This document shows, in pieces, positions 3,609-54,628 of a stretch of DNA of 64,000 nucleotides. The translations under genes and the position numbers were made by a program. The notes below the pieces were generated by a model, which was not told where the DNA came from, did not search any database, and saw only the letters and a program-made list of their open reading frames with translations. How positions within the stretch are numbered: the first letter of the stretch is position 1; each line of letters opens with the position of its first letter. Source of the stretch: an uncultured Candidatus Rokubacteria bacterium (GTDB taxonomy: Bacteria; Methylomirabilota; Methylomirabilia; Rokubacteriales; CSP1-6); NCBI GenBank assembly GCA_963747235.1, contig CAVVEU010000029.1, positions 96,001-160,000 on the forward strand, read 5' to 3'.

Positions 3609-6600
3609 ACCTCTCCGGCCCCTTCATCCGGCGGCCGGTCGGCACCACGCTGCTGACCGTCGCGCTGGTGCTGGCGGGCGTCATCGGCTTCCAGCTCCTG
3701 CCGGTGGCGCCGCTGCCCCAGGTGGACTTCCCCACCATCAACGTCTCCACCGGCCTGCCCGGCGCGAGCCCGCTCGACCATGGCCTCGGCGGTGGCCACC
3801 CCGCTCGAGCGCCAGTTCACCCGCATCGCCGCGGTCAGCGAGATGACCTCCACGAGCTTCCTGGGCTCGACGAGCGTGGCGCTGCAGTTCGATCTCTCGC
3901 GCGACATCAACGGCGCCGCCCGCGACGTGCAGTCGGCCATCAACGCGGCGAGCGGCCAGCTCCCCTCGAACCTCCCGAGCAATCCCACCTACCGCAAGGT
4001 CAACCCGGCCGACGCGCCGATCATGATCCTGGCGCTGACCTCCGCCACCGCGACCCCGGGCAAGCTCTACGACATGGCCTCCACGATCCTCCAGCAGAAG
4101 CTGGCCCAGCTCGAAGGCGTCGGGCAGGTCTTCGTGGGCGGCAGCTCGCTGCCCGCGGTGCGGGTGGAGCTCGAATCCCCACGCGCTCGCCCGCTACGGC
4201 ATCGGGCTCGAGGACGTGCGCGCGGTGCTGGCCAGCGCCAACGTCAACCGGCCCAAGGGCCAGATCCACGGGCCGGAGCGGGCGTGGGAGATCCGCACCA
4301 GCGACCAGATCCGCTACGCGGCGGAGTACCGCCCGCTGCTGGTGGCCTGGCGCAACGGGGCCGCGGTCCGCCTGGAGGACGTGGCCGACGTGCGCGACTC
4401 GGTCGAGGACCTGCGCTCGATCGGCCTCGCCAACGGCCAGCGCGCCGCGCTCCTCATCATCTTCCGCCAGCCCGGCGCCAACATCATCGACGCGGTGGAC
4501 CGCATCCGCGCGGCGCTGCCCGAGCTGCACGCGCTCCTGCCCGCCGACGTCGGCCCTGACCCCGGTCCTGGACCAGACCGTCACGATCCGCGCCTCGGTG
4601 GCCGACGTGGAGCACGCCCTGATGATCTCGGTGGCCCTGGTGGTGCTGCGTGGTGTTCCTGTTCCTGCGCGACTGGCGCGCCACCGCGATCCCCGGGGTG
4701 GCGGTGCCGGTGTCCCTCATCGGCACCTTCGCCTTCATGTACCTGATGGGCTACAGCATCGACAACCTGTCGCTGATGGCCCTCACGGTGGCCACCGGCT
4801 TCGTGGTGGACGACGCGATCGTGGTGGTGGAGAACGTCATGCGCCACCTCGAGGCGGGCATGCCCCCGCTCGAGGCGGCGATCACGGGCGCCCGCGAGAT
4901 CGGCTTCACCGTGCTGTCGATCAGCATCTCGCTGGTGGCGGTCTTCATCCCGATCCTCCTGATGGGCGGGCTCGATCGGGCGACTCTTCCGCGAGTTCGC
5001 GGTGGTGCTCTCGATCGCCGTCCTCGTCTCGCTGGTCGTCTCGCTCACCGTCACCCCGATGATGTGCGCGCGGCTGCTCCGCTCGCGCGAGGGCCGGCCC
5101 ACGGCCGCCTCTACCGCGGCGGCGAGCGGGTGTTCGGCTGGGTCGCCGCGGCTACGAGCGGTCGCTCGGCTGGGCCCTCCACGTACCCGCGCACCGTGCT
5201 GCTGATCGCCGGACTCGACCTGCGCGGTCAACGTGTATCTCTTCGTGGCGATCCCCAAGGGCTTCTTCCCCCAGCAGGACAACGGCCGGCTCAGCGGCGC
5301 CATCGTGGCCGCCCAGGACATCGTCGTTCCAGGCCATGCGCCGACAAGGTGACCCGCTACGCGGCGATCGTGCACGGCGATCCGGCGGTCGCCACCGTCA
5401 CCGCCTACACCGGCGGCGGGGCCCGCGGCACCACCGTCAATACCGCGCGCATGTTCATCGCGCTCAAGCCGCGCCGGGAGCGCGACGCCACCGCCGACGA
5501 GGTGATCACCCGGCTGCGCCCGAAGCTCGCGCGCGTCGCCGGGGCCACCTGCTATCTCCAGGCGGTGCAGGACATCCGGCTGGGCGGGCGCATGGGCAAC
5601 GCGCAGTACCAGTACACGCTGCAGGCCGACCGTCTGGAGGATCTGAGCGAGTGGGCCCCGCGCATGCTCCAGACCCTGCGCGCGCCTCCCCGAGCTGCGC
5701 GACGTCTCGAGCGACCAGCAGGACGCGGGGCTGCAGGTGCCGCTCACCATCGATCGGGACACCGCGGCCCGGCTCGGGGTGAGCACGCGGCTCATCGACG
5801 AGACGCTCTACAGCGCCTTCGGGCAGCGCCAGGTGTCGACCATCTACACCCAGCTCAACCAGTACCGGGTGGTGATGGAGGTGGCGCCCGAGTTCTGGCA
5901 GAGCCCCGACGCCCTCCGCAACATCCACGTCCAGTCGGAGCGCGGCGAGTCCGTCCCCCTCACCGCGCTCACCCGCTTCGAGCCGAGCGCGGCCCCGCTG
6001 CAGGTGAACCACCAGGGCCTCTTCCCGTCCGTGACGCTCTCGTTCAACCTGGCCCCCGGGGTGGCCCTCGGCGAGGCGGTCACCGCGGTGGAGGAGCGCG
6101 GCGCGCCGCATCGCGCTGCCCGCGAGCATCCGCGGCAAGTTCGCGGGCGCGGCCCAGGCCTTCCAGGCCTCGCTGTCCACCCAGCCGCTCCTGATCCTGG
6201 CCGCCCTCGTCGCGGTCTACATCGTGCTCGGCATGCTCTACGAGAGCTTCGTCCACCCGCTCACCATCCTGTCCACCCTGCCCTCGGCCGGGGTGGGCGC
6301 GCTGCTCGCGCTGCTCGCGTGCGGGATGGAGCTGTCGATCATCGCGATGATCGGCATCATCCTGCTGATCGGCATCGTGAAGAAGAACGCGATCATGGTC
6401 ATCGACGTCGCGCTCGATCTCGAGCGGCGCGAGGGCCGCGCCCCCCGCGAGGCCATCCACGAGGCCTGCCTGCGCCGGCTGCGGCCCATCCTGATGACCA
6501 CCATGGCCGCGCTGCTGGGCGCCCTGCCCCTGGCGCTCGGCACCGGCACCGGCTCCGAGCTGCGCCGCCCGCTGGGCGTCAGCATCGTGGGCGGCCTGCT

Positions 6601-6748
6601 GCTGAGCCAGCTCCTCACGCTCTACACGACGCCCGTCGTGTACCTGTTCCTCGAGCGCTGGCGCTTGCGCACGGTGAGCGGCTGGCGCAAGCTCGGCGAG
6701 CGGCTCGGCGGGCGACGGCCCATCGAGCAGATCAGCGGCGGCAAGTAA
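3605..6748 (+). CDS. mdtC: Multidrug efflux RND permease MdtC/MuxC (many frameshifts)
   Basis: GTG start overlaps the mdtB stop (GTGA). [17 protein letters not shown]...[42 protein letters not shown]. It is the second RND paralogue in tandem, as in mdtABC. Confidence 0.88.
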
Positions 6749-6781
6749 CCCCCTTCCAGTCCCGAGGAGAAGACGACCGTC

Positions 6782-7399
6782 ATGGAGCTCGATCCCCAGA
6801 CCATGAAGTCCGAGTCCACCTACAAGCTGCTGATCGGCTGCGTGGTGCCGCGGCCGATCGCGTGGGTCTCCACGGTGGGCGCGGACGGCGTGAACAACCT
6901 CGCCCCCTTCAGCTTCTTCATGGGGGTCTGCCAGGACCCGCCGACCATCGCGTTCTCGTCGGGCCCGCGCGCGAGGGATCGCAAGGACACCGTGCGGAAC
7001 GCCGAGCACACCGGCGACTTCGTGGTCAACATCGTGGACGACGACCGCGCCGAGCAGATGAACCTGACCTCGGGCGAGTACCCGCCCGAGGTGGACGAGT
7101 TCGCGCTCACCGGCCTCACCGCCGCCCCCGGCGTGCGGGTGCGCTCGCCGCGCGTGGTCCAGGCCCCGGTCAGCCTCGAGTGCCGCGTGGCCCAGATCAT
7201 CCCGGTCGGGCGCGGGCCCCACAGCCTGGTGCTGGGCGAGATCGTGTACTTCCACGTGCGCGACGACGTCTACGACGCGGCCACCGGGCGCATCGACGTG
7301 GCGCGCCTCAAGCCGGTCGGCCGCCTCGCCGGCCACCAGTACACCTACGTCCACGAGATCTTCGAGATGAAGCGCCCCAACGAGAACTACCGGGGGTAG
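6782..7399 (+). CDS. Flavin reductase family protein (FMN-binding split barrel)
   Basis: YKLLIGCVVPRPIAWVST...NNLAPFSFF...KDTVRN...FVVNIV...PVGRLAGHQY; SD GAGGAG upstream. Confidence 0.9.
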   Translation: MELDPQTMKSESTYKLLIGCVVPRPIAWVSTVGADGVNNLAPFSFFMGVCQDPPTIAFSSGPRARDRKDTVRNAEHTGDFVVNIVDDDRAEQMNLTSGEYPPEVDEFALTGLTAAPGVRVRSPRVVQAPVSLECRVAQIIPVGRGPHSLVLGEIVYFHVRDDVYDAATGRIDVARLKPVGRLAGHQYTYVHEIFEMKRPNENYRG

Positions 7400-42103: not shown

Positions 42104-43299
42104 TAGAAGCTGACCGGCAGCGCCTGCAACCCGCGTAGCGTCAGGCTCTGGCGGAACTGGGGCTGGTCGGTGGCCAGGGCCAGCTTCGGCAGCCGCGCGA
42201 GCAGCGTGTTGATCGCGATCTGCCCCTCCATGCGCGCGAGCGGCGCGCCGAGGCAGAAGTGGATGCCCATGCCGAACGCGATGTGCCGGTTGTCGGCGCG
42301 CGTGATGTCGAGGCGATCCGGATCGGGGAACTGGGCGGGGTCGCGGTCGGCCGCGCCCAGGAACGGCATCACCATCTCGCCCTTGGGGATGGTCCGGCCG
42401 CCGATCGTGAGGTCCTCGCTCGGGATGCGCGCGGTGCGCTGCACGGGCCCGTCGAAGCGCAGCAGCTCCTCGACCGCGGTGACGATGAGGCCGGGGTTCT
42501 CGCGCAGCTTCTGGAGCTGGTCGGGATGGCGCAGCAGCGCCAGCGTGCCGTTGCCGATCAGGTTCACGGTGGTCTCGTGGCCGGCCACCAGCAGCAGGAT
42601 GCAGGTGGCGAGCAGCTCTTCCTCGTTGAGCTTGTCGCCGGCCTCCTCCGCCGCGATGAGGGCGGAGAGCATGTCGTCGCGCGGAGCTGCCCGCCGCTCC
42701 GCGATCAGCTCGCGGAAATACTCGGCGAGGGCCCGCCGGCCGGCGACGCTGCGCTGGCCCACCTCCGAATCGGCCGGCAGCATGATCGCGTCGAGCCCAC
42801 GGGCGATGTCGAGGCCCCAGGCCTTGAAGCGCTCGTGGTCTCGCACCGGAACGCCCAGCATCTCGCAGATGACGCGCACCGGGAGCGGATACGCGAACTC
42901 CTCGATCAGGTCCATCTGGCCCGCCCCGGCGGCATCGGCCAGCAGCTCATCCACGATCGTCTGGATGTGGGGGCGCAGGCTCTCGAGCGCCTTCGGCGTG
43001 AAGGCCTTGCTGACCAGGCCGCGCAGGCGCGTATGGTCCGGCGGGTCGCGGTCCAGCATGGAGAGCCCCAGGCCCGGCGGCGGGACCGCCATGCCGAAGC
43101 GCGCGGCCACGAAGGCGGCGATGGGCTCCTTGGTGAGGCGCGGGTCGCGCAGCATGGTCATCACGTCCGGGTAGCGCGTCAGCACCCAGAACCCGAGCGG
43201 GCTGTGGTGGACGGGATCCTCGGCCCGCAGGCGATGGTAGGTCGGGTACGGGTCCGCCACGAACGCGGGATCCATCGGGTTGAACTGGACGTCGGCCAT
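42103..43299 (-). CDS. Cytochrome P450
   Basis: DPPDHTRLR, AGHETT (I-helix), EELLRFD (ExxR), HIAFGMGIHFCLGA (haem Cys). Confidence 0.95.
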   Translation of the reverse strand: MADVQFNPMDPAFVADPYPTYHRLRAEDPVHHSPLGFWVLTRYPDVMTMLRDPRLTKEPIAAFVAARFGMAVPPPGLGLSMLDRDPPDHTRLRGLVSKAFTPKALESLRPHIQTIVDELLADAAGAGQMDLIEEFAYPLPVRVICEMLGVPVRDHERFKAWGLDIARGLDAIMLPADSEVGQRSVAGRRALAEYFRELIAERRAAPRDDMLSALIAAEEAGDKLNEEELLATCILLLVAGHETTVNLIGNGTLALLRHPDQLQKLRENPGLIVTAVEELLRFDGPVQRTARIPSEDLTIGGRTIPKGEMVMPFLGAADRDPAQFPDPDRLDITRADNRHIAFGMGIHFCLGAPLARMEGQIAINTLLARLPKLALATDQPQFRQSLTLRGLQALPVSF

Positions 43300-43381
43300 T
43301 GAGCGCTTCCCTCCCGCGCCCATCATACATCTGCTATCTTCTCGGCAACCCCCTCACCGGCAAGCACGGAAAGGACAGGCC

Positions 43382-45029
43382 ATGGCCACGATCACGGGAT
43401 CGGAAGTGCTGGCGCAGGCGCTCAGGTCGCAGGGCGTGGACACGATGTTCTATCTCATGGGCGGCCCCATGCTCGAGACCGAGGCGGCCTGCATCAAGCT
43501 CGGCATCCGCGCCATCGACACGCGCCACGAGCAGGCCGCGGCCCTGGCCGCGCATGCCTGGACGCGCGTGACGCGGCGCCCCGGCGTGGCCATGGGCTGC
43601 TCGGGCCCCGGCGCCATCAACCTGGCCACCGGCGTGGCGAACGCCTTCACCGACTGCGCCCCGCTGATCGCCATCGGCGGGTCGAGCCCGCGCGTGTTCC
43701 TCGGCATGGAGGCCTTCCAGGAGATCGACCAGGTCGCCCTGATGAAGCCCATCACCAAGTGGACGGAGCGCATCTACGACGCCAAGCGCATCCCCGACGT
43801 GGTGGACACCGCGTTCCGCCAGGCGACCACCGGCCGGCCCGGCCCCGTGTACATCGACATGCCGGGCGACATCCTGGGCGAGAAGATCGAGGAGGACCAG
43901 CTCCACTACCCCGGTCCGTGGAAGCCGGCGCCGCGCAGCCTGGGCGATCCGAACGCGGTGCGCGAGGCCATCGCGCTGCTCGCGCAAGGCCGAGCGCCCG
44001 GTGGTCATCGCGGGCAGCGGCGTGTGGTGGTCCGACGGCGCCGCCCAGCTCCAGGCCTTCGTGGAGGCCACCGGCATCCCGTTCTACACCACGCCGATCT
44101 CCCGCGGCCTCATCCCGGAGGATCACGAGCTCGCGTTCCTGAACGCGCGCAGCACGGCCTTCACCGAGGCCGACGTGGTGCTGGTGGTCGGCACGCGGTT
44201 CAACTGGGTGATCCAGTTCGGCCGCCCGCCGCGCTTCGCCGCCGATCTCAAGGTGATCCACGTGGACATCAACCCGACCCAGCTCGGCCACAACCGTGAA
44301 GTGGATGTTCCCATCGTCGGCGACGCGCGCGCGGTGCTGGAGCAGCTCCGCGCGGAGGCCGAGGGCAAGATCACGCCCAAGCGCTACGCGGCCTGGACCG
44401 GCAAGCTGCGCACGCTCGACGCCGAGAAGGGCGCCGAGCAGGACAAGGCCATGAGCCGCGAGGAGACGCCGATCCACCCGCTGCGGCTCTGCAAGGAGAT
44501 CCGCGACTTCATGCGGCGCGACGGCATCCTGGTGGTGGACGGCCAGGAGATCCTGAACTTCGGCCGCCAGGCCATCCCGACCTACGTCGCCGGCCACCGG
44601 CTGAACTCGGGCGCGTTCGGCACGATGGGCGTTGGCCTGCCCTTCGGCGTGGGCGCGAAGGTCGCCAAGCCCGACGCGCAGGTGCTGGTGCTGCACGGCG
44701 ACGGCTCCTACGGCATCAACGCGATGGAGATCGACACCGCGGTGCGACACAAGATCCCGGTGGTCGTCGTCATCAGCAACAACGGCGGCTGGACCGCGGA
44801 CGCGCCGTGGACGCGCCCTCTGCCCAAGCCCGGGCGCAACCTCGGCCACACCCGCTACGACCGCGTGGCGCAGGAGCTGGGCGCGCACGGTGAGTACGTG
44901 GAGAAGCCGCACGACATCCGCCCCGCGCTCGAGCGCGCGTTCGCCTCGGGCAAGCCGGCGGTGGTCAACGTCATCACCGATTCCAAGGCGCGCGCGACGA
45001 CGGTGCGGTTCTCGGCGTACACGACGTAG
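43382..45029 (+). CDS. ThDP-dependent enzyme of the oxalyl-CoA decarboxylase / 2-hydroxyacyl-CoA lyase clade (frameshift ~43985)
   Basis: RHEQAA, SGPG, AFQEIDQ, GRPGPVYIDMPGD, LNSGAFGTMGVG, GDGSYG...NNGG, TRYD. Confidence 0.85.
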
Positions 45030-45045
45030 CGGGAGACCCTCGATC

Positions 45046-46242
45046 ATGGCCCAGGCCCTCGACGGGATTCGTGTCCTCGACCTGACCCAGTACGAAGCGG
45101 GCCCGAGCTGCACCCAGATGCTGGCGTGGCTCGGGGCGGAGGTCATCAAGATCGAGCCGCCCACCGGCGAGCCCGGCCGCACCGCGCTGTCCGACAAGCG
45201 CGGCGAGGACGCGTGGTTCTTCCTGCTGCTCAACTCGTGCAAGAAGGGCGTCACGCTCAATCTGAAGTCGGAGCGCGGGCACGCCATGTTCCTCGACCTG
45301 GTGAAGACCGCCGACGTACTGGTCGAGAACATGGGGCCGGGCGCGATGGATCGGCTCGGCCTGGGCTGGGAGGCGCTGCACCAGCTCAACCCGCGGCTGA
45401 TCGCGGCCTCCGTGAAGGGCTTCGGCGGCGGCGGGCCCTACGCCGACTACAAGAGCTTCGAGTGGATCGCCCAGGCCATGGGCGGCGCCATGAGCATGAC
45501 CGGCTCGCCCGACGGCCCGCCGACCAAGGCCATCGGCGGCCTCGCCGACACCGGCGCGGGACTGCACACCGCGATCGGGATCCTGGCCGCCATCATCCAG
45601 CGCCAGGCCACCGGCGTGGGGCAGCAGGTGGAAGTCGCCCAGCAGGAGTCGGTGGTGAACCTCCTCCGCATCCATCTGCGCGAGAGCTACGCCACCGGCA
45701 AGCCGGCCCCGCGCCAGGGCAATCGTTCCGCCGCCGCCGCGCCGTCCAACATCTACCGCTGCCAGCCCGGCGGGCCCAACGACTACGTGTTCATCCACTG
45801 CGCCACCGTGGACATGTGGAAGGCGCTGACGAAGATCGTCGGCCGTCCCGAGATGGCCGACGACACGCGCTACCACGACCGGCGCGACCGCGTGCAGATC
45901 GTGGACGAGATCGACGCGATGATCGAGGCGTGGACCGAGACGCGGACGAAATTCGAGGTGATGGAGATCATGGCCGGCGCCGGCGTCCCCTGCGGCGCGG
46001 TGCTCGACTCCACCGAGATCCTGGCCGACCCGCACATGCGCAAGCGCCGCTTCATCGTGGATCTGGAGCACCCGCGGCGCGGCCCCTATCCGATGCCGGG
46101 CAACCCGGTGCGCCTCTCCGACTCCCCCACCGAGGTCGGCCGCTCGCCTCTTCTGGGCGAGCACAACGCCGACGTCTACGGCCGCCTCCTCGGCTACAAG
46201 CCCGAGGCCGTCGACCAGCTGAAGCGCGACGGCATCATCTAA
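45046..46242 (+). CDS. Family III (CaiB/BaiF) CoA transferase, formyl-CoA transferase-like
   Basis: IRVLDLTQ, GPSCTQMLAWLGAEVIKIE, ADVLVEN, LNPRLI, AQAMGG, catalytic Asp in GLADTGAG, PLLGEH. Confidence 0.9.
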   Translation: MAQALDGIRVLDLTQYEAGPSCTQMLAWLGAEVIKIEPPTGEPGRTALSDKRGEDAWFFLLLNSCKKGVTLNLKSERGHAMFLDLVKTADVLVENMGPGAMDRLGLGWEALHQLNPRLIAASVKGFGGGGPYADYKSFEWIAQAMGGAMSMTGSPDGPPTKAIGGLADTGAGLHTAIGILAAIIQRQATGVGQQVEVAQQESVVNLLRIHLRESYATGKPAPRQGNRSAAAAPSNIYRCQPGGPNDYVFIHCATVDMWKALTKIVGRPEMADDTRYHDRRDRVQIVDEIDAMIEAWTETRTKFEVMEIMAGAGVPCGAVLDSTEILADPHMRKRRFIVDLEHPRRGPYPMPGNPVRLSDSPTEVGRSPLLGEHNADVYGRLLGYKPEAVDQLKRDGII

Positions 46243-46254
46243 CCCGCACCTCCA

Positions 46255-46289
46255 CCCTCTCCCCTCAGGGGAGAGGGCAGGGTGAGGGG
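46255..46289. repeat. Palindromic extragenic repeat, copy 1
   Basis: CCCTCTCCCC-TCA-GGGGAGAGGG (46255-46277) followed by CAGGGTGAGGGG. Confidence 0.8.
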
Positions 46290-46309
46290 TGGTCTACAGG
46301 AGAACACCC

Positions 46310-47245
46310 ATGAGCGACAACCGCGCCGTCGTCGTCGACCCCGCCGCCCCCGGCCGCCTCGTCATCCGCGCCGTCCCCGACCCGGTCCCCGATCGCGGCG
46401 AGGCCATCGTTCGCGTACGCGCGATCTCCCTGAATCGCGGCGAGGTCCGCCGCTCCACCATGGCCGCCGCCGGCTGGCGCCCCGGCTGGGACCTGGCCGG
46501 CCACGTGGAGCGCGCCGCCGCCGACGGCACCGGGCCCCAGGTCGGCGCGCGCGTGGTCGGAATCCTGCCGGAAGGCGCCTGGGCCGAGCGCGTGGCCGTG
46601 CCCACGCACGCGCTGGCCGAGCTGCCCGAGAAGGTGACGTTCTCGCAGGCCGCCACCTTCCCGGTGGCCGGCCTCACCGCCCTGCACGCGCTCGGCAAGA
46701 ACGGCCCGCTTCTCGCCCGCCGCGTGCTGGTGACCGGCGCGACCGGCGGGGTCGGCGACTTCGCGGTGCAGCTCGCGCGCCTGGGCGGCGCCCACGTGAC
46801 CGCCAGCGCCCGTCGCGCCGATCAGGTTCCCGCGCTCCGCCAGCTCGGCGCGCACGAGGTGACGGTGGGCGACGAGATCCCGCCCTCGCCCAAGTACGAT
46901 CTGATCGTCGAGTCGGTGGGCGGGCGCACCCTCGGCACCGCGCTGGCGGCGCTGCAGCGCGGCGGCGTCTGCGTCACGCTGGGCGTCTCCGCCTCCGCGG
47001 ATGTCACCTTCGACGCGCGCACGTTCTTCGCCACCGGGCGCAGCACGCTCTACGGGCTCTATCTCTTCAGCGAGCTCGGCGCCGAGCCCGCGTCGATCGG
47101 CCTGCGCCGCCTCGCCGACCTGGTGGCCGCGGGCCAGCTCGCGCCGCACGTCAGCGTGGAGCGCCCGTGGAGCGAGATCGCCCAGGTGGCCGCGGATCTC
47201 ATCGCGCGGAAGTACCCGGGCAAGGCCGTGCTCACGCTCGCCTGA
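46310..47245 (+). CDS. MDR-superfamily (quinone-reductase-like) NAD(P)H oxidoreductase
   Basis: SLNRGE, GWDLAG, AATFPVAGLTA, LVTGATGGVG, GKAVL; SD AGGAG. Confidence 0.88.
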   Translation: MSDNRAVVVDPAAPGRLVIRAVPDPVPDRGEAIVRVRAISLNRGEVRRSTMAAAGWRPGWDLAGHVERAAADGTGPQVGARVVGILPEGAWAERVAVPTHALAELPEKVTFSQAATFPVAGLTALHALGKNGPLLARRVLVTGATGGVGDFAVQLARLGGAHVTASARRADQVPALRQLGAHEVTVGDEIPPSPKYDLIVESVGGRTLGTALAALQRGGVCVTLGVSASADVTFDARTFFATGRSTLYGLYLFSELGAEPASIGLRRLADLVAAGQLAPHVSVERPWSEIAQVAADLIARKYPGKAVLTLA

Positions 47246-47249
47246 TCCG

Positions 47250-48443
47250 ATGCCGCGCCTCGACCGGCTGCCGCCGCTCAACCGCAACAACCTGCTGCTG
47301 CTGCCCGTACAGGTGAACGATACCGCGCCGTTCACGCATCTGGCCCGGCCGCTGTCCGAGTCACGGCTCGCCATCGTCACCACCGCCGGCCTCCACCGCC
47401 GTGGCGACCGGCCGTTCGGGCCGGGCGAGCAAGGCTATCGCGTGATCCCCTCGGACACGCCGGCCGCCGAGATCGTCCAGAGCCACACCAGCCTCGGCTT
47501 CGATCGCGTGCCGACGATGCGCGACCTGAACATCTCGTTCCCGGCGGACCGGCTCCGCGAGCTGGTCACGCGCGGCGAGCTCGGGGCGATGGCGCCGAGC
47601 CACTACTCGTTCATGGGCGCGCTGCGGGATCTCGGGCACATCCAGGACGCGACGGGGCCCGAGGTCGGCCGCCGGCTTCGGGCCGAGGGCGTGGACGCGG
47701 TCCTGATCACGCCCACCTGACCCTTCTGCACGCACACCGGAGGTGTGCTGGCCCGCGCGCTCGAGACCACCGGCCTCGCCACCACGTCCATCAGCATGGT
47801 GCGCGAGCACACCGAGAAGGTGAAGCCCCCGCGCGCGCTCTTCGTGCCGTTCCCCTTCGGCCACGCCCTGGGCCGCCCGGACGATCCGGCCCTCCAGCAT
47901 CGCGTCCTCCGCGCCGCCCTGGATCTCCTTGGCGAGCCGGCCGGCCCGGTGCTCCGCGACTTCCCCGACGACGCGGAGCCGGGCGATCAGCCGGCCGCGC
48001 CCACCCAGGCCTCCGGGATCACGCCCGCGGCAACCATCTCGGAGGATCCCGCGCTCGAGACCGCGCGGATGCGCCAGTACCACGAGCAATGGCTGGCGCG
48101 CAGCGGCGGGCGCACCGCCTTCGGGTTGAGCGGCGTGCCCGCCACGCGCTTCCGCGGTGTGGTGCGCTTTCTCCAGGCCTTCGCGGCCGGCGAGGACGCT
48201 AATCTGGAGGAGCGCCCGACGGAGGTCCCGCTCCCGAACTTCCTCCGCTACTGCGCGGACGACTGGAAGGCGCTCTACTTCGAGGGCCGCATGGTCATGA
48301 AGCCGGGCGCGAGCGGTGACGACGTCGCGCGGTGGTTCTGGGGGGAGACGGCGGCGGCCCAGGTGCTCCGCCGCGTCGGCAAACGGCTGGAGACCTCCGA
48401 GGACCCGCGCTGGAAGGCCGCCGCCTTCGGCGTGGCGCGGTAG
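47250..48443 (+). CDS. Selenoprotein: PrdB/GrdB-like reductase B subunit with C-terminal extension, 397 aa, Sec at codon 157 (TGA 47718-47720)
   Basis: ORFs 47001-47720 and 47745-48443 are in the same frame, separated only by the TGA: ...GVDAVLITPT-U-PFCTHTGGVLARALETTGLATTSIS...KPPRALFVPFPFGHALG. The N-terminal part has RLAIVTTAG, YRVIP, DLNISFPADRLREL, HYSFMG, typical of the PrdB family. A SECIS-like hairpin follows the TGA. Confidence 0.9.
47732..47748 (+). promoter_or_regulatory. Bacterial SECIS-like stem-loop
   Basis: GCACACC-GGA-GGTGTGC: perfect 7-bp stem with a G-led apical loop, starting 11 nt after the in-frame TGA. Confidence 0.8.
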
Positions 48444-48448
48444 GGTCT

Positions 48449-48480
48449 CCTCACCTACCCTCTCCCCCGAGGGGAGAGGG
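48449..48480. repeat. Palindromic extragenic repeat, copy 2 (inverted relative to copy 1)
   Basis: CCTCACC-TA-CCCTCTCCCC-CGA-GGGGAGAGGG; lies between convergent genes. Confidence 0.8.
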
Positions 48481-48499
48481 AGAGCTTGGGCCTACCGCG

Positions 48500-50101
48500 C
48501 TACTCGCTCAACCACACCCCGTCGAGCTGGCAGTTCAGGAAGTGGCTCGGTGTGATCGTCCAGCCGCGCACCTTGGAGAGGTGCGGCACAATGCGGTTCC
48601 ACTGGAACGTCATGATGAAGTGGACCTCGTCGTCGTAGAGCCGCTTCTCGAAGGTGCGCAGGATCTTCCGGCGCTCCTCGGGGTCGATGGCGCGCGACTG
48701 TCGCGCGTAGAGATCGTCCATCACCGTGTCCTTGTGGCGGCTGAAGTTCACGGGTGAGGTCGTGAGGAACCAGTGCAGGTCCATGTCGGGCTCGACGATG
48801 GAGTTGCACGGAGCGTTGGTGGACACCTCGAAGTCGCCGCTCTTCTGCGCCTGCAGCCACGCGGCGGACTCGAGGGTCACCTGCTTGACGTTGAGACCGA
48901 CCTGGCGCCACTGGTCGATCAGCCAGATGCCCACCGGCTCGTAAGGCTGTGGGACCGCGCGGTTCGTCAGGGTGAAGGACAGGCCCTCCTGGCCGGCCTC
49001 CTTGAGCAGGCGCCGGGCCTCGGCGCGCGCGGCGTTGATGTCGGTCCCGTAGCCCGCCAACTTGGCCAGCTCGTCGGGTGGGGTGGCCCAGGGCGTGCCC
49101 GGCACCTGGATGCCGGCCACATCCTTGACCAGCGCGATGCGGGAGAGGGCCTTCGAGCCCGCGTACCGGTCCAGCGCCAGCGAGAGCGCCCGGCGCACGC
49201 GCTTGTCCTGGAACGGCTTCTTCTCCTGGTTCATCGCCACCTGGATCGAGCAGTTCCAGGGGCTCTCCTGCACGTTGATCTTGTTGCCGAGCGCCTGGAC
49301 CAGGCCATCGCGCTGCGCCGGGGTGAAGCCGCGGAACTGGATCATCGCCCGCTCACCGCGGATGGCCGCCACCTGGGCCCCCGCGTCCTGGATGAAGATG
49401 GCGCGGTAGCCGTCGAGATAGGGCTTGCCCTTGTCCCAGTAGTCGGGGTTCTTCTTGCCCACCCAGTGCGAGCCCCGCACGTATTCCACGAACTTGAAGG
49501 GCCCGGTGCCCATGATGTTCTTCTCGTACCAGTGCGGGTCCTTGGCCAGGATCTCGGCTTTGTAGATGTAGTTCCACGGGGAAGACACGTTGGCGATGAA
49601 CGAGGCCTCCGGGGCCTTCAGCCGGAACACCACCGTGTCGGGGTTCGGGGCCTCCACCGATTCCACGCCCCGGTAGGCCGCCTTGCGGCTCGACACGAGC
49701 CCCGGCCCCGGGAAGATGATCTTGTCGTAGGAGGCCTTCACGTCGGCGGAGGTCATCAGGCTGCCGTCGTGGAACTTCACGCCGCGGCGGATCTTGAACG
49801 TGTAGACGCGCTTATCCGGCGAGACCGTCCAGGACTCGGCGAGGTCGCCGATGAACTTGGTGCCGGTCCGGTCGGTGGGATCCACCCGCATCAGGGTGTT
49901 GTAGTGGGGCCCGGTCGGGTGAAGCATGGCGAACGTTTCTTCGCGATGCCCATCGAAACCGGGCGGCTCGGCCGCGACCACGAAGATCAGCTCGCCGCCG
50001 GAACGGGGTTGCTCCTGTGCAACGGCCGGCGCGGGGGCGCCGAGAGAGAGGACGAGGCCGAGGCAGCCGAGGACCGTCAGTGATCGCGAGAACCGGATCA
50101 T
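48500..50101 (-). CDS. Family 5 ABC solute-binding protein
   Basis: SD GGAGG; signal peptide; GDLAESW, KIRRGVKFHDG, MGTGPFKF, DKRVRRAL. Confidence 0.92.
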   Translation of the reverse strand: MIRFSRSLTVLGCLGLVLSLGAPAPAVAQEQPRSGGELIFVVAAEPPGFDGHREETFAMLHPTGPHYNTLMRVDPTDRTGTKFIGDLAESWTVSPDKRVYTFKIRRGVKFHDGSLMTSADVKASYDKIIFPGPGLVSSRKAAYRGVESVEAPNPDTVVFRLKAPEASFIANVSSPWNYIYKAEILAKDPHWYEKNIMGTGPFKFVEYVRGSHWVGKKNPDYWDKGKPYLDGYRAIFIQDAGAQVAAIRGERAMIQFRGFTPAQRDGLVQALGNKINVQESPWNCSIQVAMNQEKKPFQDKRVRRALSLALDRYAGSKALSRIALVKDVAGIQVPGTPWATPPDELAKLAGYGTDINAARAEARRLLKEAGQEGLSFTLTNRAVPQPYEPVGIWLIDQWRQVGLNVKQVTLESAAWLQAQKSGDFEVSTNAPCNSIVEPDMDLHWFLTTSPVNFSRHKDTVMDDLYARQSRAIDPEERRKILRTFEKRLYDDEVHFIMTFQWNRIVPHLSKVRGWTITPSHFLNCQLDGVWLSE

Positions 50102-50156: not shown

Positions 50157-51101
50157 CTACCGCTTGAGGCGGGGCAGCAGGCGAGCGGCCGCTTCGTCCA
50201 CCTGGGCGAGCTGATCGCCGCCCGCGAAGCGCAGCGCCAGGTGCCGGGCGCCCGCGTCGATCCAGCGCTGGAGCCACTCCACCGCGCCCTCGATGGGGCC
50301 GGCATACGTGGCCTGGCGTGCCTTGATCGCTCGCGCGGGCGCGGCGTAATAGTGCTCGAGGAACGCGTCGAGCCGCTTCTCCGCCGCCGCCGCGCTGGGA
50401 TCGAGCGCGAGCGTGAGGTAGGCCGCGCCGGTCACCGCGTCGGGGGCGCGGCCGGCCGCGCGCGCCGCCGCCTGCACGCCGGGGAACTTCTCGGCGAAGA
50501 ACTCGACGCCGGGCCCGGTGGGAAACCACGCGTCGAAGCGCGCGGCCTCGCGGAGCGCGGTGGGCCCGTTGCCGCCGATCCAGATCGGCGGGCCGCCCGG
50601 CCGGTGCGGCTTGGGCTCCACGGTGGCGCCGTCGAGCGTGAAGTGCTTGCCCGCGAAGCTCACGTTGTCGCGCTGCCAGAGCGCGCGGCAGATCTCGATG
50701 GTCTCGAGGAAGCGGCCCACGCGGCGCTCCCACGGAACGCCCAGGTGGGTGAACTCCTTCCGGCTGGCCGGGTTGTCGCCCACGATGCCGACGCCCAGGA
50801 TCACCCGTCCCTCGGCCAGGCGATCCACGGTCGCGATCAGGTGCGCCAGCACCACCGGGCGGCGTAGCGCGGGCAGCAGCACGCCGGTGCCGATGCGCAC
50901 CCGCCGGGTCCGCGCCGCGATGGCGGCCATCAGGGTCAGCGGCTCGTGCCGCGGCTTGGCGGTGATCGAGTCGCCGATCCAGACCGAGTCGAAGCCCGCG
51001 GCCTCCGCGCGCTCGGCCATGGCCAGCAGCGGGCCCGTCTCCGGGCGGTCCGACATGATCGCCTCGCGGGTGGGAATCAGTACGCCGAATTCGACCGGCA
51101 T
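50157..51101 (-). CDS. LLM-class flavin-dependent oxidoreductase
   Basis: SD AGGAGG; GFDSVWIGDS, RVRIGTGVLL, DRLAEGRVILGVG, PKPHRPGGPPIWIGG. Confidence 0.88.
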   Translation of the reverse strand: MPVEFGVLIPTREAIMSDRPETGPLLAMAERAEAAGFDSVWIGDSITAKPRHEPLTLMAAIAARTRRVRIGTGVLLPALRRPVVLAHLIATVDRLAEGRVILGVGIVGDNPASRKEFTHLGVPWERRVGRFLETIEICRALWQRDNVSFAGKHFTLDGATVEPKPHRPGGPPIWIGGNGPTALREAARFDAWFPTGPGVEFFAEKFPGVQAAARAAGRAPDAVTGAAYLTLALDPSAAAAEKRLDAFLEHYYAAPARAIKARQATYAGPIEGAVEWLQRWIDAGARHLALRFAGGDQLAQVDEAAARLLPRLKR

Positions 51102-51103
51102 CG

Positions 51104-54100
51104 CTACCTCCTGGCCAGATCCTCGACTTCTCGAATGAGGGGCGACGACTCGAGCCCCGCCCGTAGGCCGGGATCCCGGGTTGCCGCCCGTAGCCGGGTG
51201 ATGATAGCCCAGGCCGTGCGGTAGCGCCCGAGCGCCTCCTCCCGTCGCCCCCGCGCCGCATCGAGCCGGCCGAGTGCGACCTGGCTCACCCAGGTCTGGC
51301 GCGGCTGGCCGATCGCCTCCGCGATGGTCAGCGCGCGCCGCAGCGCATCGTGCGCCTCGTCCCAGGCGTGGCGCGCGGTCGCACTCTCTCCCTTGATGCG
51401 CCACGCCCAGCTCTCGAACTTCCGCGACCGGGTCGGCACGCCGATCTCGAGGCTCTGATCGGCGAGCCGCCGGGCCCGCTCGGGATCGCCCTGGAGCAGC
51501 GCGAGCTGCCCCAGGCCCGCGTAGCACTGCGTCGCGTAGCGCCAGGTCATCCAGCGCGAGGGCGGCGGATGGCGGACCACATGATGCGACTCTTCGAGCG
51601 CCTCGGCGGCCGCGGCGAGATCTCCCTGCGCCATCCAGGCCTCGGCCTCGTTGTTGCGGATGAACGCGCGGCGCTCGGCGCCGGTGCCGTGGCCGGCCCG
51701 CGACGAGCGTCCGGTGGCCTCGTACGATTGCTCCGAGAGCTCGACCCCGGTCGGATAGTCGCCGCACTCGATTCGCAGCCAGCCGATCGTGTTGAGAAAT
51801 CGCGGAATATACGCGTCGTCGCCGATCTTCTCCGCGAGCGCAAACCCCTCGCCGAGGGCCGCAAGCGCCCGGTCGTACTCTCCCACGTCATTGGCCGCCA
51901 CCCCCTCGTTCCACAGGCAGCGGAGCAGCGGGACGACGAGCCGATGTTCGCGGGCGATCCGAGCACCTTCCGCGCTGAGCTCGAGGCTCGGCCCATACTC
52001 CCCCTGCCAGCTCCGATGCAACGAGAGGAAATGGAGTGCGAGCGCCTGGCGATTCGGATCACCCACCGCCCGGCCGATGGTCAGGGCCCGCCCGACGTCC
52101 GCTTCCGCGTCGTCGAGGCGCCCAGAGACCGCGTGCATGTAGCCCCGGATGTACAGGCCGAAGCCCAGCGGGGCCTGGGCCCCGACGCTCTCGGCGATCT
52201 CGATCGCCTCTCGCACCCGCTCGAACGCGGGCGGGAAATCCTCGGCCCACTGGAGCGCCTGGGCGACCTGCACCAGCGCCACCGCCTCCGCGACGCGATC
52301 GCCGGCGCGGCGGGCCAGGTCCACGAGGGCCTCGGCCGCCTCGCGGGAGCGGACGAAGTCGCCGATGCCAAAGAAGAGGTCGGCCCGCGCGCGATGAATC
52401 GCCATGAGCGTGGCCACGGGCGCCGACTGGCGCCGCCGGGCCGCAACCACGAGCGCCTCGGCATACAGCTCGATGGCCTGCCGCAGGCCGAACGCCTGGG
52501 TCGCCTTCTCGGCGGCCTTGAGCAAGTAGTCGAGCGCCCGGTCCCAGTCCTCGGCATGCGAGAAGTGGTGGGCGAGCATCTCGAAGTGCTCGGCGAGCCG
52601 ATCGGCGTACAGCTCCTCGATGGCCCGCCCGATGAGCCCGTGCAGCTCCTTGCGCCGTCGCACGAGGAGGGAGGCGTAGGTCACATCCTGGGTCAAGGCG
52701 TGCTTGAACATGTACGCCAGCTCGGGGAAGCGGCGGCGCTCGTGGATCAGCTCGAGCGCGGTGAGCTCACGGAGGTTGTCCTCGGTGCTCTCCCGGATCT
52801 CGGCCAGGCGGTCCACGAGCCGTCGGGTGAACTCGCGCCCGATCACCGACGCGAGCTGCAGCGTCTGCTTGGGCGCTTCGGCCAGCCGGTCGATCCGGGC
52901 CGCGATCACGTCCTGGATGGTGCTGGGAATGTCGGACGCGGTCACCGGCCGGGCCAGGTCGAGCCGGCCGTTCGCCCGCCGCAGGACTCCGCCTTCCTCC
53001 AGCGACTTGACCAGCTCCTCGACGTAGAACGGGTTGCCCTCGGCCTTCGTGGCGACGAGCGCCCGCAGCTCGGCCGGCAGGGTGTCGGTGGCGAGGACCG
53101 CCGCCGCCATGCGGACGCTGTCGTCGGCCGACAGCGGCGCCGGCACGATGCGGGTGAAGTAGCTGCGATCGCCGAAGGGACTCGGGTATCCCGGTCGATA
53201 GGTGAACACGAGCAGCGCCCGGACCGCCGGCACGCTGTCCACCAGGGACGCGAGGAACTGCTCGCTCGCACTGTCGATCCAATGCAGGTCCTCGATGACC
53301 AGGATCTGGGATTGCCGCTCGGCCGCGCGGACCAGGAGGCGACGGAGCGCGTCGAGGATCTCGCCGCGGCGTTCCGCGGGGCTCATGGCCCGCACCGCCT
53401 CATCGCCCGGGTCGACGGACAGCAAGGCCCGGAGATACGAGGAGACGGGCCCGAGGTCCGCACCGATCTGCGCGACCCCCCGCTCGAGCTTCGCGGTGAT
53501 GGCCGCGTCGCCGTCACTCTCCTCGACGCCGAACCAGCGCCGGATCAGGTCGACCAGCGGATGAAAGGCCATCGCCTTCCCGAACGAGAGACAGTGGCCT
53601 TCGTGCCAGTCGCCGGCGGCGCCGACCCGGCGGCGAAGCTCGAGGAGCAATCGTGACTTTCCGATCCCGGGCTCGCCCACGACGAATACCACCTGTCCCT
53701 CGCCGGACTGGGCGCGGGCGAAGGCATCGAGCAGCTGGCCCAGCTCGCGCTCGCGCCCCACCAGCGGGGTGAGCCCGTGCTCCACCTCGACGTCGAGGCG
53801 CGTGCGCGCCTCGCGGGCGGTCACCACTTCCCAGGCGGGCATCGGCTCGACCTTGCCCTTCAGCTGCTTCTCGCCCAGCGAGCGCGTCTCGAAGTAGCCG
53901 TGCACGAGCCGATGGGTCGCCTCCGAGATCGTCACCCGACCAGGCTCGCCCACCTGCTGCATGCGCGCCGCCACGTTGGTGGTATCGCCGACCGCGGTGT
54001 AGTCCATGCGCAGGTCGCTGCCGATGCTGCCCACCACCACGAGGCCGGTATTGAGGCCCTGGCGGACGCGGAAGGTGATGCCGCGCGGCCGGAGCTCGGC

Positions 54101-54628
54101 CTGGTAGGCGTCGAGCGCGCGGGCGATGCCGAGCGCCGCGTGGACGGCCCGCCGCGCGTGGTCCTCGTGCGCGATGGGCGCCCCGAAGAGCGCCATGATG
54201 CCGTCACCGAGGAACTGGTTCACCGTGCCCTCGAAGCGGTGCACCTCGGCCAGCATGAGATCGAAGGCGCGGCTCATGAGCCGGTGAACTTCCTCGGGAT
54301 CGAGGCCGGCGGACAGGGCCGTGAAGCCGGAGACATCCACGAAGAGTACCGTCACCTGCTTGCGCTCGCCCTTGAGCGCCCCCGCGGTGGTGAGGATCTT
54401 CTCGGCCAGATGCTTCGGGGTGTAGACGGTCGGCGAGGCGAACTGATCGGGAGCTGCCTGCGCGGGCTCACGCTTCGGCGCGAGGGCGGCACCACACTGG
54501 TGGCAGAAGCGGTTGCCCGGCGGGTTCTCCGTCTGGCACGCGGGACAGGCCACGACCAGGCGCGCGCCGCATCCGCCGCAGAACTGGGCGGCGGCCGGAT
54601 TCGCGTGGCCGCAGCCAGTGCAGGTCAT
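51104..54628 (-). CDS. STAND-type signalling protein: double zinc ribbon, class III nucleotide cyclase, P-loop NTPase, TPR region
   Basis: Four CxxC pairs; GERKQVTVLFVDVSGFT, FLGDGIMALFG, YTAVGDTTNVAAR; GRERE, GEPGIGKS, ILVIEDLHW, GNPFY, FKHAL; TPR-like helices. Confidence 0.92.
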   Translation of the reverse strand: MTCTGCGHANPAAAQFCGGCGARLVVACPACQTENPPGNRFCHQCGAALAPKREPAQAAPDQFASPTVYTPKHLAEKILTTAGALKGERKQVTVLFVDVSGFTALSAGLDPEEVHRLMSRAFDLMLAEVHRFEGTVNQFLGDGIMALFGAPIAHEDHARRAVHAALGIARALDAYQAELRPRGITFRVRQGLNTGLVVVGSIGSDLRMDYTAVGDTTNVAARMQQVGEPGRVTISEATHRLVHGYFETRSLGEKQLKGKVEPMPAWEVVTAREARTRLDVEVEHGLTPLVGRERELGQLLDAFARAQSGEGQVVFVVGEPGIGKSRLLLELRRRVGAAGDWHEGHCLSFGKAMAFHPLVDLIRRWFGVEESDGDAAITAKLERGVAQIGADLGPVSSYLRALLSVDPGDEAVRAMSPAERRGEILDALRRLLVRAAERQSQILVIEDLHWIDSASEQFLASLVDSVPAVRALLVFTYRPGYPSPFGDRSYFTRIVPAPLSADDSVRMAAAVLATDTLPAELRALVATKAEGNPFYVEELVKSLEEGGVLRRANGRLDLARPVTASDIPSTIQDVIAARIDRLAEAPKQTLQLASVIGREFTRRLVDRLAEIRESTEDNLRELTALELIHERRRFPELAYMFKHALTQDVTYASLLVRRRKELHGLIGRAIEELYADRLAEHFEMLAHHFSHAEDWDRALDYLLKAAEKATQAFGLRQAIELYAEALVVAARRRQSAPVATLMAIHRARADLFFGIGDFVRSREAAEALVDLARRAGDRVAEAVALVQVAQALQWAEDFPPAFERVREAIEIAESVGAQAPLGFGLYIRGYMHAVSGRLDDAEADVGRALTIGRAVGDPNRQALALHFLSLHRSWQGEYGPSLELSAEGARIAREHRLVVPLLRCLWNEGVAANDVGEYDRALAALGEGFALAEKIGDDAYIPRFLNTIGWLRIECGDYPTGVELSEQSYEATGRSSRAGHGTGAERRAFIRNNEAEAWMAQGDLAAAAEALEESHHVVRHPPPSRWMTWRYATQCYAGLGQLALLQGDPERARRLADQSLEIGVPTRSRKFESWAWRIKGESATARHAWDEAHDALRRALTIAEAIGQPRQTWVSQVALGRLDAARGRREEALGRYRTAWAIITRLRAATRDPGLRAGLESSPLIREVEDLARR

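Follow-up and report, generated by a model that had tools for sequence, protein, structure and literature searches.

A 64,000-nucleotide stretch of DNA from an uncultured "Candidatus Rokubacteria" bacterium (assembly GCA_963747235.1, contig CAVVEU010000029.1, positions 96,001 to 160,000; here called the window) carries on its plus strand, at positions 47250 to 48443, a predicted complete selenoprotein gene of 397 codons followed by TAG, which is read through one UGA. We propose that its product is a selenocysteine (Sec)-containing reductase of the PrdB/GrdB superfamily that uses a Sec157/Cys160 redox pair and works independently of PrdA; to this whole statement, partner independence included, we assign a probability of about 0.6. 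That the gene encodes a real selenoprotein is, on comparative sequence grounds, nearly certain, because four independent lines of evidence converge on UGA as a Sec codon: conservation of the codon, homologues with cysteine in its place, covariation in an adjacent hairpin, and the presence of the Sec insertion machinery.

From the ATG at 47250 to the TAG at 48441 to 48443, the gene forms a single reading frame whose sole internal stop is the TGA at 47718 to 47720. This TGA is codon 157 and is surrounded by the residues T-P-T-U-P-F-C-T-H-T-G-G, where U denotes Sec. Viewed with translation table 11, the locus falls into two open reading frames (ORFs), 47001 to 47720 and 47745 to 48443. The G+C contents at third codon positions of the two halves are 0.93 and 0.94, the composition of a real gene in a genome with 70.7% G+C, and the start M-P-R/K-L is conserved, with M1 and P2 invariant among 30 sequences. 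A reading of this DNA from its sequence alone (the sequence-only reading) had described one frame broken only by this TGA and had expected standard pipelines to split it into two. Both the frame and the motif T-P-T-U-P-F-C proved correct when re-read, and 117 of the 120 best database relatives are indeed fragments of 222 to 239 amino acids, the named ones labeled "hypothetical protein." Likewise, a search of the ESM Atlas with the post-TGA ORF returned unnamed "hypothetical protein" clusters and nothing else.

The codon in question was followed through homologous loci. Taking one genome per species, we found 127 relatives and kept 80 loci, which by record title comprise 31 from Methylomirabilota/Rokubacteria, 31 from Chloroflexota (Dehalococcoidia, SAR202, and Limnocylindria), 7 from Entotheonella/Tectimicrobiota, 4 from Actinomycetota, 3 from Acidobacteriota, 2 from Binatia, 1 from Deferrimicrobiaceae, and 1 unclassified, and which thus span at least six phyla, with some labels of metagenome-assembled genomes (MAGs) possibly reflecting binning errors. 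The codon homologous to codon 157 is TGA in 79 of the 80 loci and TGC in one, L085, on a Streptomyces chromosome; L052 carries a frameshift upstream, so that its codon was examined separately, and the second stop in L094 is due to a frameshift. The U-P-x-C part of the motif T-P-T-U-P-x-C is present in 78 of 78 listed loci, and both P158 and C160 are invariant in 30 diverse sequences; the codon for Cys160, the putative resolving cysteine of U-x-x-C, lies at 47727 to 47729. Further, three homologues (P0017, P0068, and P0118) of 394 to 396 amino acids are uninterrupted, align end to end at 50 to 55% identity, and have Cys at the Sec column (T-P-[TAS]-C-P-x-C). Between the TGA and the next codon at which translation could start lie eight codons, and these too are conserved at the protein level. 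The proposal that recoding of UGA yields a 397-residue product is therefore supported by the conserved TGA, by the continuous frame of the Cys forms, and by the machinery described below.

A candidate selenocysteine insertion sequence (SECIS)-type hairpin, with a 7-bp stem and a GGA loop, lies at 47732 to 47748, where GCACACC (47732 to 47738) pairs perfectly with GGTGTGC (47742 to 47748) around GGA (47739 to 47741); it begins 11 nucleotides past the TGA, exactly where the sequence-only reading had placed it, and a lower stem of 2 bp (47728 and 47729 with 47751 and 47752) is possible. Among 79 sequences, 74 of them distinct, 94.0% of 666 cells are paired, compared with a shuffled mean of 87.9% and with 21 to 54% for slid partners. 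Changes on both sides were observed at four stem pairs (32 cells), and the observed covariation score was reached by none of 500 shuffles. In 15 sequences, the A-U pair at alignment columns 25 and 33 becomes G-C through a Thr-to-Ala change coupled with a synonymous GGT-to-GGC change. Codons ending in A or T are rare in the gene (27 of 398), and two of them, GGA164 and GGT165, sit in the hairpin. As read from the printed sequence, the paired T has become C in the Cys-form locus L085, with loss of the pair. The first base of the loop is G in at least 90% of the sequences.

The folding energy of a 91-nucleotide stretch is no better than that of shuffled sequences (z = +1.41; 183 of 200 fold equally well or better), and therefore the hairpin taken alone is not beyond chance in DNA of 70.7% G+C; a scan of 46000 to 49000 against Rfam returned no SECIS-like family at an E value of ≤10. 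The hairpin is significant because of its conservation and covariation across homologues, and the folding-energy and Rfam nulls do not count against this comparative evidence.

All four machinery genes that the sequence-only reading had named, selA, selB, selC, and selD, were found in the genome of the host. The matches to selA (578 bits) and selB (365 bits) are neighbors on contig C14, that to selD (228 bits) is on contig C27, all three are above their cut-offs, and a tRNA-SeC with anticodon tca is located near selA. The selB, selA, and tRNA-SeC genes form a cluster of less than 5 kb on contig C14 (40679 to 45481, minus strand). Among five other genomes that carry the gene, selA is above its cut-off in all four with the Sec form and not in the Streptomyces genome with the Cys form, so that the use of Sec or Cys tracks the presence of the machinery.

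The product belongs to a long-form branch of its own within the PrdB/GrdB superfamily, in which a Rossmann-like domain is followed by a family-specific helical domain. Its length of 397 residues contrasts with the 238 positions of the NCBIfam profile TIGR04483 (PrdB) and is not the size of a single-domain PrdB (about 240 residues). In an AlphaFold2 model of the whole protein built on a 30-sequence alignment (predicted local distance difference test [pLDDT], 89; predicted template modeling score, 0.89), an alpha/beta domain extends to about residue 240 and is followed by a linker and by an all-helical domain at residues 267 to 395. The PrdB/GrdB-like alpha/beta domain (residues 1 to 240; 47250 to 47969) is matched by TIGR04483 over residues 21 to 227 (E value of 9e-41), in agreement with the PrdB-like part of about 240 residues recognized in the sequence-only reading. 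The Pfam model GRDB (PF07355) scores 29.3 bits against a gathering score of 22 and is matched only at profile positions 217 to 347 of 347, and the NCBIfam Grd models all score under their cut-offs (e.g., TIGR01918, 39.4 versus 65.45 bits). Sec157 is modeled between strand 150-154 and helix 160-172. The loop Q77-R86 is invariant and yet poorly ordered, with pLDDT below 50 for residues 81 to 86. In the linker (residues 241 to 266; 47970 to 48047), which varies in sequence and length and in which the indels between homologues are located, pLDDT drops to 61 in the block 241 to 250. A sequence search of the PDB found no relative (best E value of 0.54, a chance match to a thioesterase), and Foldseek returned nothing for the whole model at an E value of ≤0.001. 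A VIA-wide fold search with the whole model retrieved only generic Rossmann, LacI-type, and SDR folds, matching residues 33 to 250 (best Z of 8.4; root mean square deviation [rmsd] of 3.7 over 140 residues).

The family-specific domain, at residues 267 to 397 (48048 to 48440), conserves W281, R300, R302, R333, D337, D338, K340, E345, W362, W364, and T367. The sequence-only reading had noted extra residues at this end, and structure prediction for the domain alone gave a confident helical fold (pLDDT of 95). No Pfam family matches the C-terminal 130 to 150 or so residues even at an E value of ≤10; the best Foldseek match to the domain alone has an E value of 0.36, and the best VIA match is a TetR-family repressor (Z of 4.9; rmsd of 4.5 over 95 residues), within the noise range for helical proteins. 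Searching 1.84 billion representatives with the domain yielded 257 proteins at an E value of ≤0.001, of which 31 were compared with the full protein. Two of them (P0126 and P0139) are full-length Cys forms of 394 to 396 amino acids, most of those longer than 220 amino acids start at about residue 165 to 171, right after the Sec site, and in two the N-terminal part is unrelated or deleted. No different partner domain was found among the 31 matches, only the PrdB-like domain standing ahead of the helical one; we therefore regard the helical domain as a fixed extension of this superfamily branch.

The best-scoring family for the long form is D-proline reductase PrdB (TIGR04483) of Clostridioides difficile and C. 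sticklandii, in which Sec U151 of the C. difficile protein attacks a substrate carbon held on the PrdA pyruvoyl group and a U151C variant is inactive, according to the accessible part of PMC11229817. U151 and U157 of the long form sit in UxxC at similar positions, and UxxC is the motif tabulated for PrdB in the available text of PMC9312934. The long form also has a Sec/Cys redox motif in common with GrdB, GrdF, and GrdH (PF07355; TIGR01917/TIGR01918), although it has UxxC only, whereas GrdB, which acts with GrdA and GrdE, has UxxCxxC, as given in the accessible portion of PMC13188914. Family membership and motif would thus be compatible with an ordinary B subunit of D-proline reductase, or of a glycine- or betaine-type reductase, whose PrdA or GrdE is encoded elsewhere in a genome that is only 88% complete. 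We consider this unlikely. The TIGR04483 score of 139.9 bits is far under the equivalog cut-off of 300, the extra domain of 130 residues is retained throughout the family, and the gene lies amid aerobic catabolic genes rather than in a prd or grd operon. The O2-dependent enzymes previously noticed in the window were confirmed as a cytochrome P450 (42103 to 43326) and a luciferase-like monooxygenase (50157 to 51767). More generally, the long form occurs in bacteria of soil and sea whose gene sets are aerobic, in contrast to the Stickland fermenters that carry PrdB.

The expected absence of a PrdA or Grd partner was also borne out. The PrdA/GrdE profile PF09338 found no match in the own genome of the gene or in four of the five other carrier genomes. 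In the fifth, an Entotheonella chromosome (G152), it detected three genes at least 0.95 Mb from the long-form gene, which shows that the search can detect the family and at the same time speaks for an ordinary B subunit. These three genes lie at 1.93, 2.03, and 2.09 Mb of G152:C1 (the genome of L056), and this organism may have genuine glycine, betaine, or proline reductases as well. GrdA (PF04723) had no match in the own genome, a weak point against an ordinary B subunit since the control genomes gave none either. Among 128 neighboring ORFs scanned against Pfam in 27 diverse loci, none belongs to the PrdA/GrdE, GrdA, or thioredoxin families. Within the limits of incomplete genomes, these gene contents show that the protein would need neither the pyruvoyl subunit PrdA/GrdE nor a conserved neighboring partner to work.

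The sequence-only reading had instead suggested a pairing with the NAD(P)H-dependent medium-chain dehydrogenase/reductase (MDR) encoded immediately upstream, that is, a dedicated two-component redox system. On the plus strand of the window, genes for a thiamine pyrophosphate (TPP)-dependent enzyme, a family III CoA-transferase, and the MDR protein (a zinc-alcohol dehydrogenase-type protein with ADH_N and ADH_zinc_N domains; 46289 to 47245) precede the selenoprotein gene, which starts 4 nucleotides after the TGA stop of the MDR gene on the same strand, and the two genes are directly adjacent in six close relatives (L018, L020, L021, L024, L027, and L094). This pairing did not hold up beyond close kin, and we consider it quite improbable. 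In tblastn searches with the window neighbors, the MDR gene was found at 8 of 79 loci, all with MDR genes that are 84 to 91% identical, the CoA-transferase gene at 13, and the TPP enzyme gene at 9, in close relatives only. The MDR gene is absent from the close relative L019 and lies about 1.2 kb from the selenoprotein gene in L022 and L059. Further, de novo clustering of neighbor ORFs revealed no family in more than 15 of the 80 loci, and the selenoprotein gene behaves as a stand-alone cistron.

The gene contents around the 27 sampled loci are heterogeneous and include luciferase-like monooxygenases, dioxygenases, TauD, Rieske proteins, transporters, electron transfer flavoproteins, and cobalamin genes. 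The last of these would allow a role in corrinoid (vitamin B12) metabolism, at least in Chloroflexota, as a reductase or a corrinoid-handling protein. Four of the 27 loci (L063, L067, L079, and L086) stand beside cobalamin genes in two different arrangements, the neighbors being a CobQ/CobB-type amidase, CobU, CobA, CobT, a CobC-like phosphatase, and a GHMP kinase; de novo clustering found such neighbors in 10 to 11 of the 80 loci, and Foldseek gave weak matches to B12-binding photocobilin proteins (E values of 0.014 to 0.02; probability of 0.6 to 0.69). However, the 10 to 11 loci are close kin and represent few independent events, no cobalamin context was seen in Methylomirabilota, in Entotheonella, or in the window, and the photocobilin matches are below significance, with TM-scores of 0.24 to 0.30, so that such a role seems rather improbable. 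A different context surrounds the Cys form in Streptomyces, where the gene lies within a cluster (L085, 1927 to 10125) resembling a catechol/chlorocatechol ortho-cleavage pathway and composed of genes for a LysR regulator, a CoA-transferase subunit, an MR_MLE cycloisomerase, the Cys form itself, an intradiol dioxygenase, a dienelactone hydrolase, and an iron-containing alcohol dehydrogenase. The ortho-cleavage context in Streptomyces and the cobalamin context in Chloroflexota are weak and mutually inconsistent substrate hints.

Least probable of all, and in our view very unlikely, is a true stop at the TGA, with two genes or one decayed gene and a hairpin that is a by-product of the coding sequence: gene callers do predict two ORFs, and neither folding energy nor Rfam speaks for a SECIS, but the TGA holds the same codon across several phyla with the downstream part staying in frame, the residues just after it, P158 and C160 among them, are under protein-level conservation, the Cys forms run through without a break, and the changes on both sides of the stem include T-ending codons that are otherwise rare.

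We thus return to a Sec-containing reductase that works on its own. On the comparative evidence, SelB carrying Sec-tRNA(Sec) binds the hairpin at 47732 to 47748 while the ribosome is at the UGA at 47718 to 47720, Sec is inserted at position 157, and translation continues to the TAG at 48441 to 48443. In the catalytic mechanism that we propose, the Sec157 selenolate would attack an electrophilic substrate, and Cys160, in the first turn of the following helix, would resolve the adduct to give a selenenylsulfide, which a general cellular dithiol, such as thioredoxin, would then re-reduce. The substrate pocket, which PrdA supplies in proline reductase, would be formed here by the helical domain and the invariant flexible loop Q77-R86.

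Several points weigh against this proposal. To our knowledge, all characterized PrdB/GrdB relatives need a pyruvoyl partner for substrate activation, and because of this a partner-free mechanism is without precedent in the superfamily. A prdA-like gene could sit in the missing part of the host genome, and one carrier, the Entotheonella genome, does have three PF09338 genes. The heterogeneous gene contexts give no consistent substrate hint, and the reductant is assumed because the scanned neighbors of the family include no thioredoxin or thioredoxin reductase gene. That the helical domain touches Sec157 is likewise an assumption, and the evidence for Sec insertion itself is comparative, not direct.

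Going further, we offer as a tentative and so far less probable extension that the long form performs a self-contained version of PrdB-type reductive bond cleavage, in which an electrophilic carbon is attacked by Sec and the adduct is resolved by Cys without a pyruvoyl subunit, the helical domain replaces PrdA in holding the substrate, and the substrates are small electrophilic metabolites of aerobic soil and marine bacteria; the catechol/chlorocatechol-type cluster around the Streptomyces Cys form is the hint for substrates of this kind. Stickland fermentation is not expected in oxic oceans. If true, a self-contained enzyme would explain why "proline reductase" has counted among the most abundant selenoproteins of these waters since 2005.

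In 2005, a "proline reductase PrdB" with UxxC was the third most abundant selenoprotein family in the Sargasso Sea, with 42 sequences, and was placed among the thiol-dependent redox selenoproteins, according to the accessible text of PMC1088965; the Global Ocean Sampling (GOS) data set then yielded 235 Sec and 110 Cys forms of PrdB, assigned to pfam07355, as given in the available part of PMC2398784 (2008). The long form resembles these sets (Zhang, Fomenko, and Gladyshev; Zhang and Gladyshev) in pfam07355 membership, in UxxC, and in Sec forms outnumbering Cys forms, and its marine members in SAR202 and Dehalococcoidia share their habitat of oxic waters. The sets may hold the long form, a short form of about 265 amino acids (see below), or both. 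In their accessible portions, the two papers file the sequences as proline reductase without discussing architecture or partners, and the accessible portions of reviews from 2022 and 2026 (PMC9312934 and PMC13188914) present PrdB solely as a subunit of clostridial D-proline reductase. The literature searched holds no description of the long form, of its helical domain, or of the absence of PrdA, the sequence lists of the two metagenome studies not having been compared. Hence, the novelty seen in the sequence-only reading needs to be divided: UxxC PrdB-type selenoproteins of non-Stickland organisms have been known from oxic metagenomes since 2005, whereas the long-form architecture, its breadth across phyla, and the absence of PrdA appear to be undescribed.

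Because the gene is systematically misannotated as fragments, a whole family of selenoenzymes goes unseen when metabolism is reconstructed from MAGs, among them those of Methylomirabilota/Rokubacteria, SAR202, other Dehalococcoidia, and Entotheonella. The long form offers a defined, foldable, and expressible target for establishing what a PrdB-type selenoprotein does in oxygen-exposed settings without PrdA, and a natural Cys form is available for study in the Streptomyces genome record (L085). No relative of its C-terminal domain could be detected among known structures, so that solving the structure would both reveal a new domain and show how the Sec site is completed.

The long form is part of a wider family. 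In a survey of 151 genomes of the phylum, PrdB-like matches at an E value of ≤1e-30 were found in 85. The full-length long form, always with a single TGA, is present in 22 of them, and partial copies occur in another six. All other matches are short forms limited to residues 20 to 230 or so, and wherever a listed match in the phylum extends across residue 157, it contains one in-frame TGA. A selA gene was found in 137 of the 151 genomes (a tally that includes the unpublished genome G101), and its co-occurrence with the family is uninformative here because selA is nearly universal in the phylum; four genomes with a TGA-containing PrdB-like gene had no selA match, at completeness values of 77 to 92%.

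The short forms, which are common in the phylum, are stand-alone PrdB-like selenoproteins like the long form, with which they are 34 to 48% identical over residues 20 to 230 or so; they differ in lacking the C-terminal helical domain, in their length of about 250 to 270 amino acids, and in their motif, V-P-[SV]-U-x-x-C-H-Q versus T-P-T-U-P-x-C-T-H. A short paralogue without the helical domain occurs in the own genome of the long-form gene (contig C8, about 470.9 to 471.7 kb; L099, about 1450 to 2190), with its TGA in the motif V-P-S-U-P-V-C. Another short form, of about 267 amino acids and with the motif V-P-V-U-Q-L-C, is encoded directly downstream of clpB (G008:C1; L100, about 6076 to 6876) in a closed genome of 2.75 Mb from the same class. 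Read by eye, the hairpins of these two genes, CAGACC-GUG-GGUCUG and CAGUCC-GUG-GGACUG, lie at the offset seen in the long form and differ at one pair, which is changed on both sides.

Two further features of the window were recorded. The gene for the TPP-dependent enzyme (43280 to 45029, plus strand) is split over two frames, with the N domain in 43280 to 44299 and the M and C domains in 44001 to 45029, by one extra C near 43985 relative to three relatives with an intact gene, and this split reflects either a mistake in the assembly or a gene that has recently become a pseudogene. On the minus strand, 51104 to 54628 encodes a large protein of 1,174 amino acids in which a double zinc ribbon, an adenylate/guanylate cyclase domain, an AAA_16 ATPase, and TPR repeats occur together.

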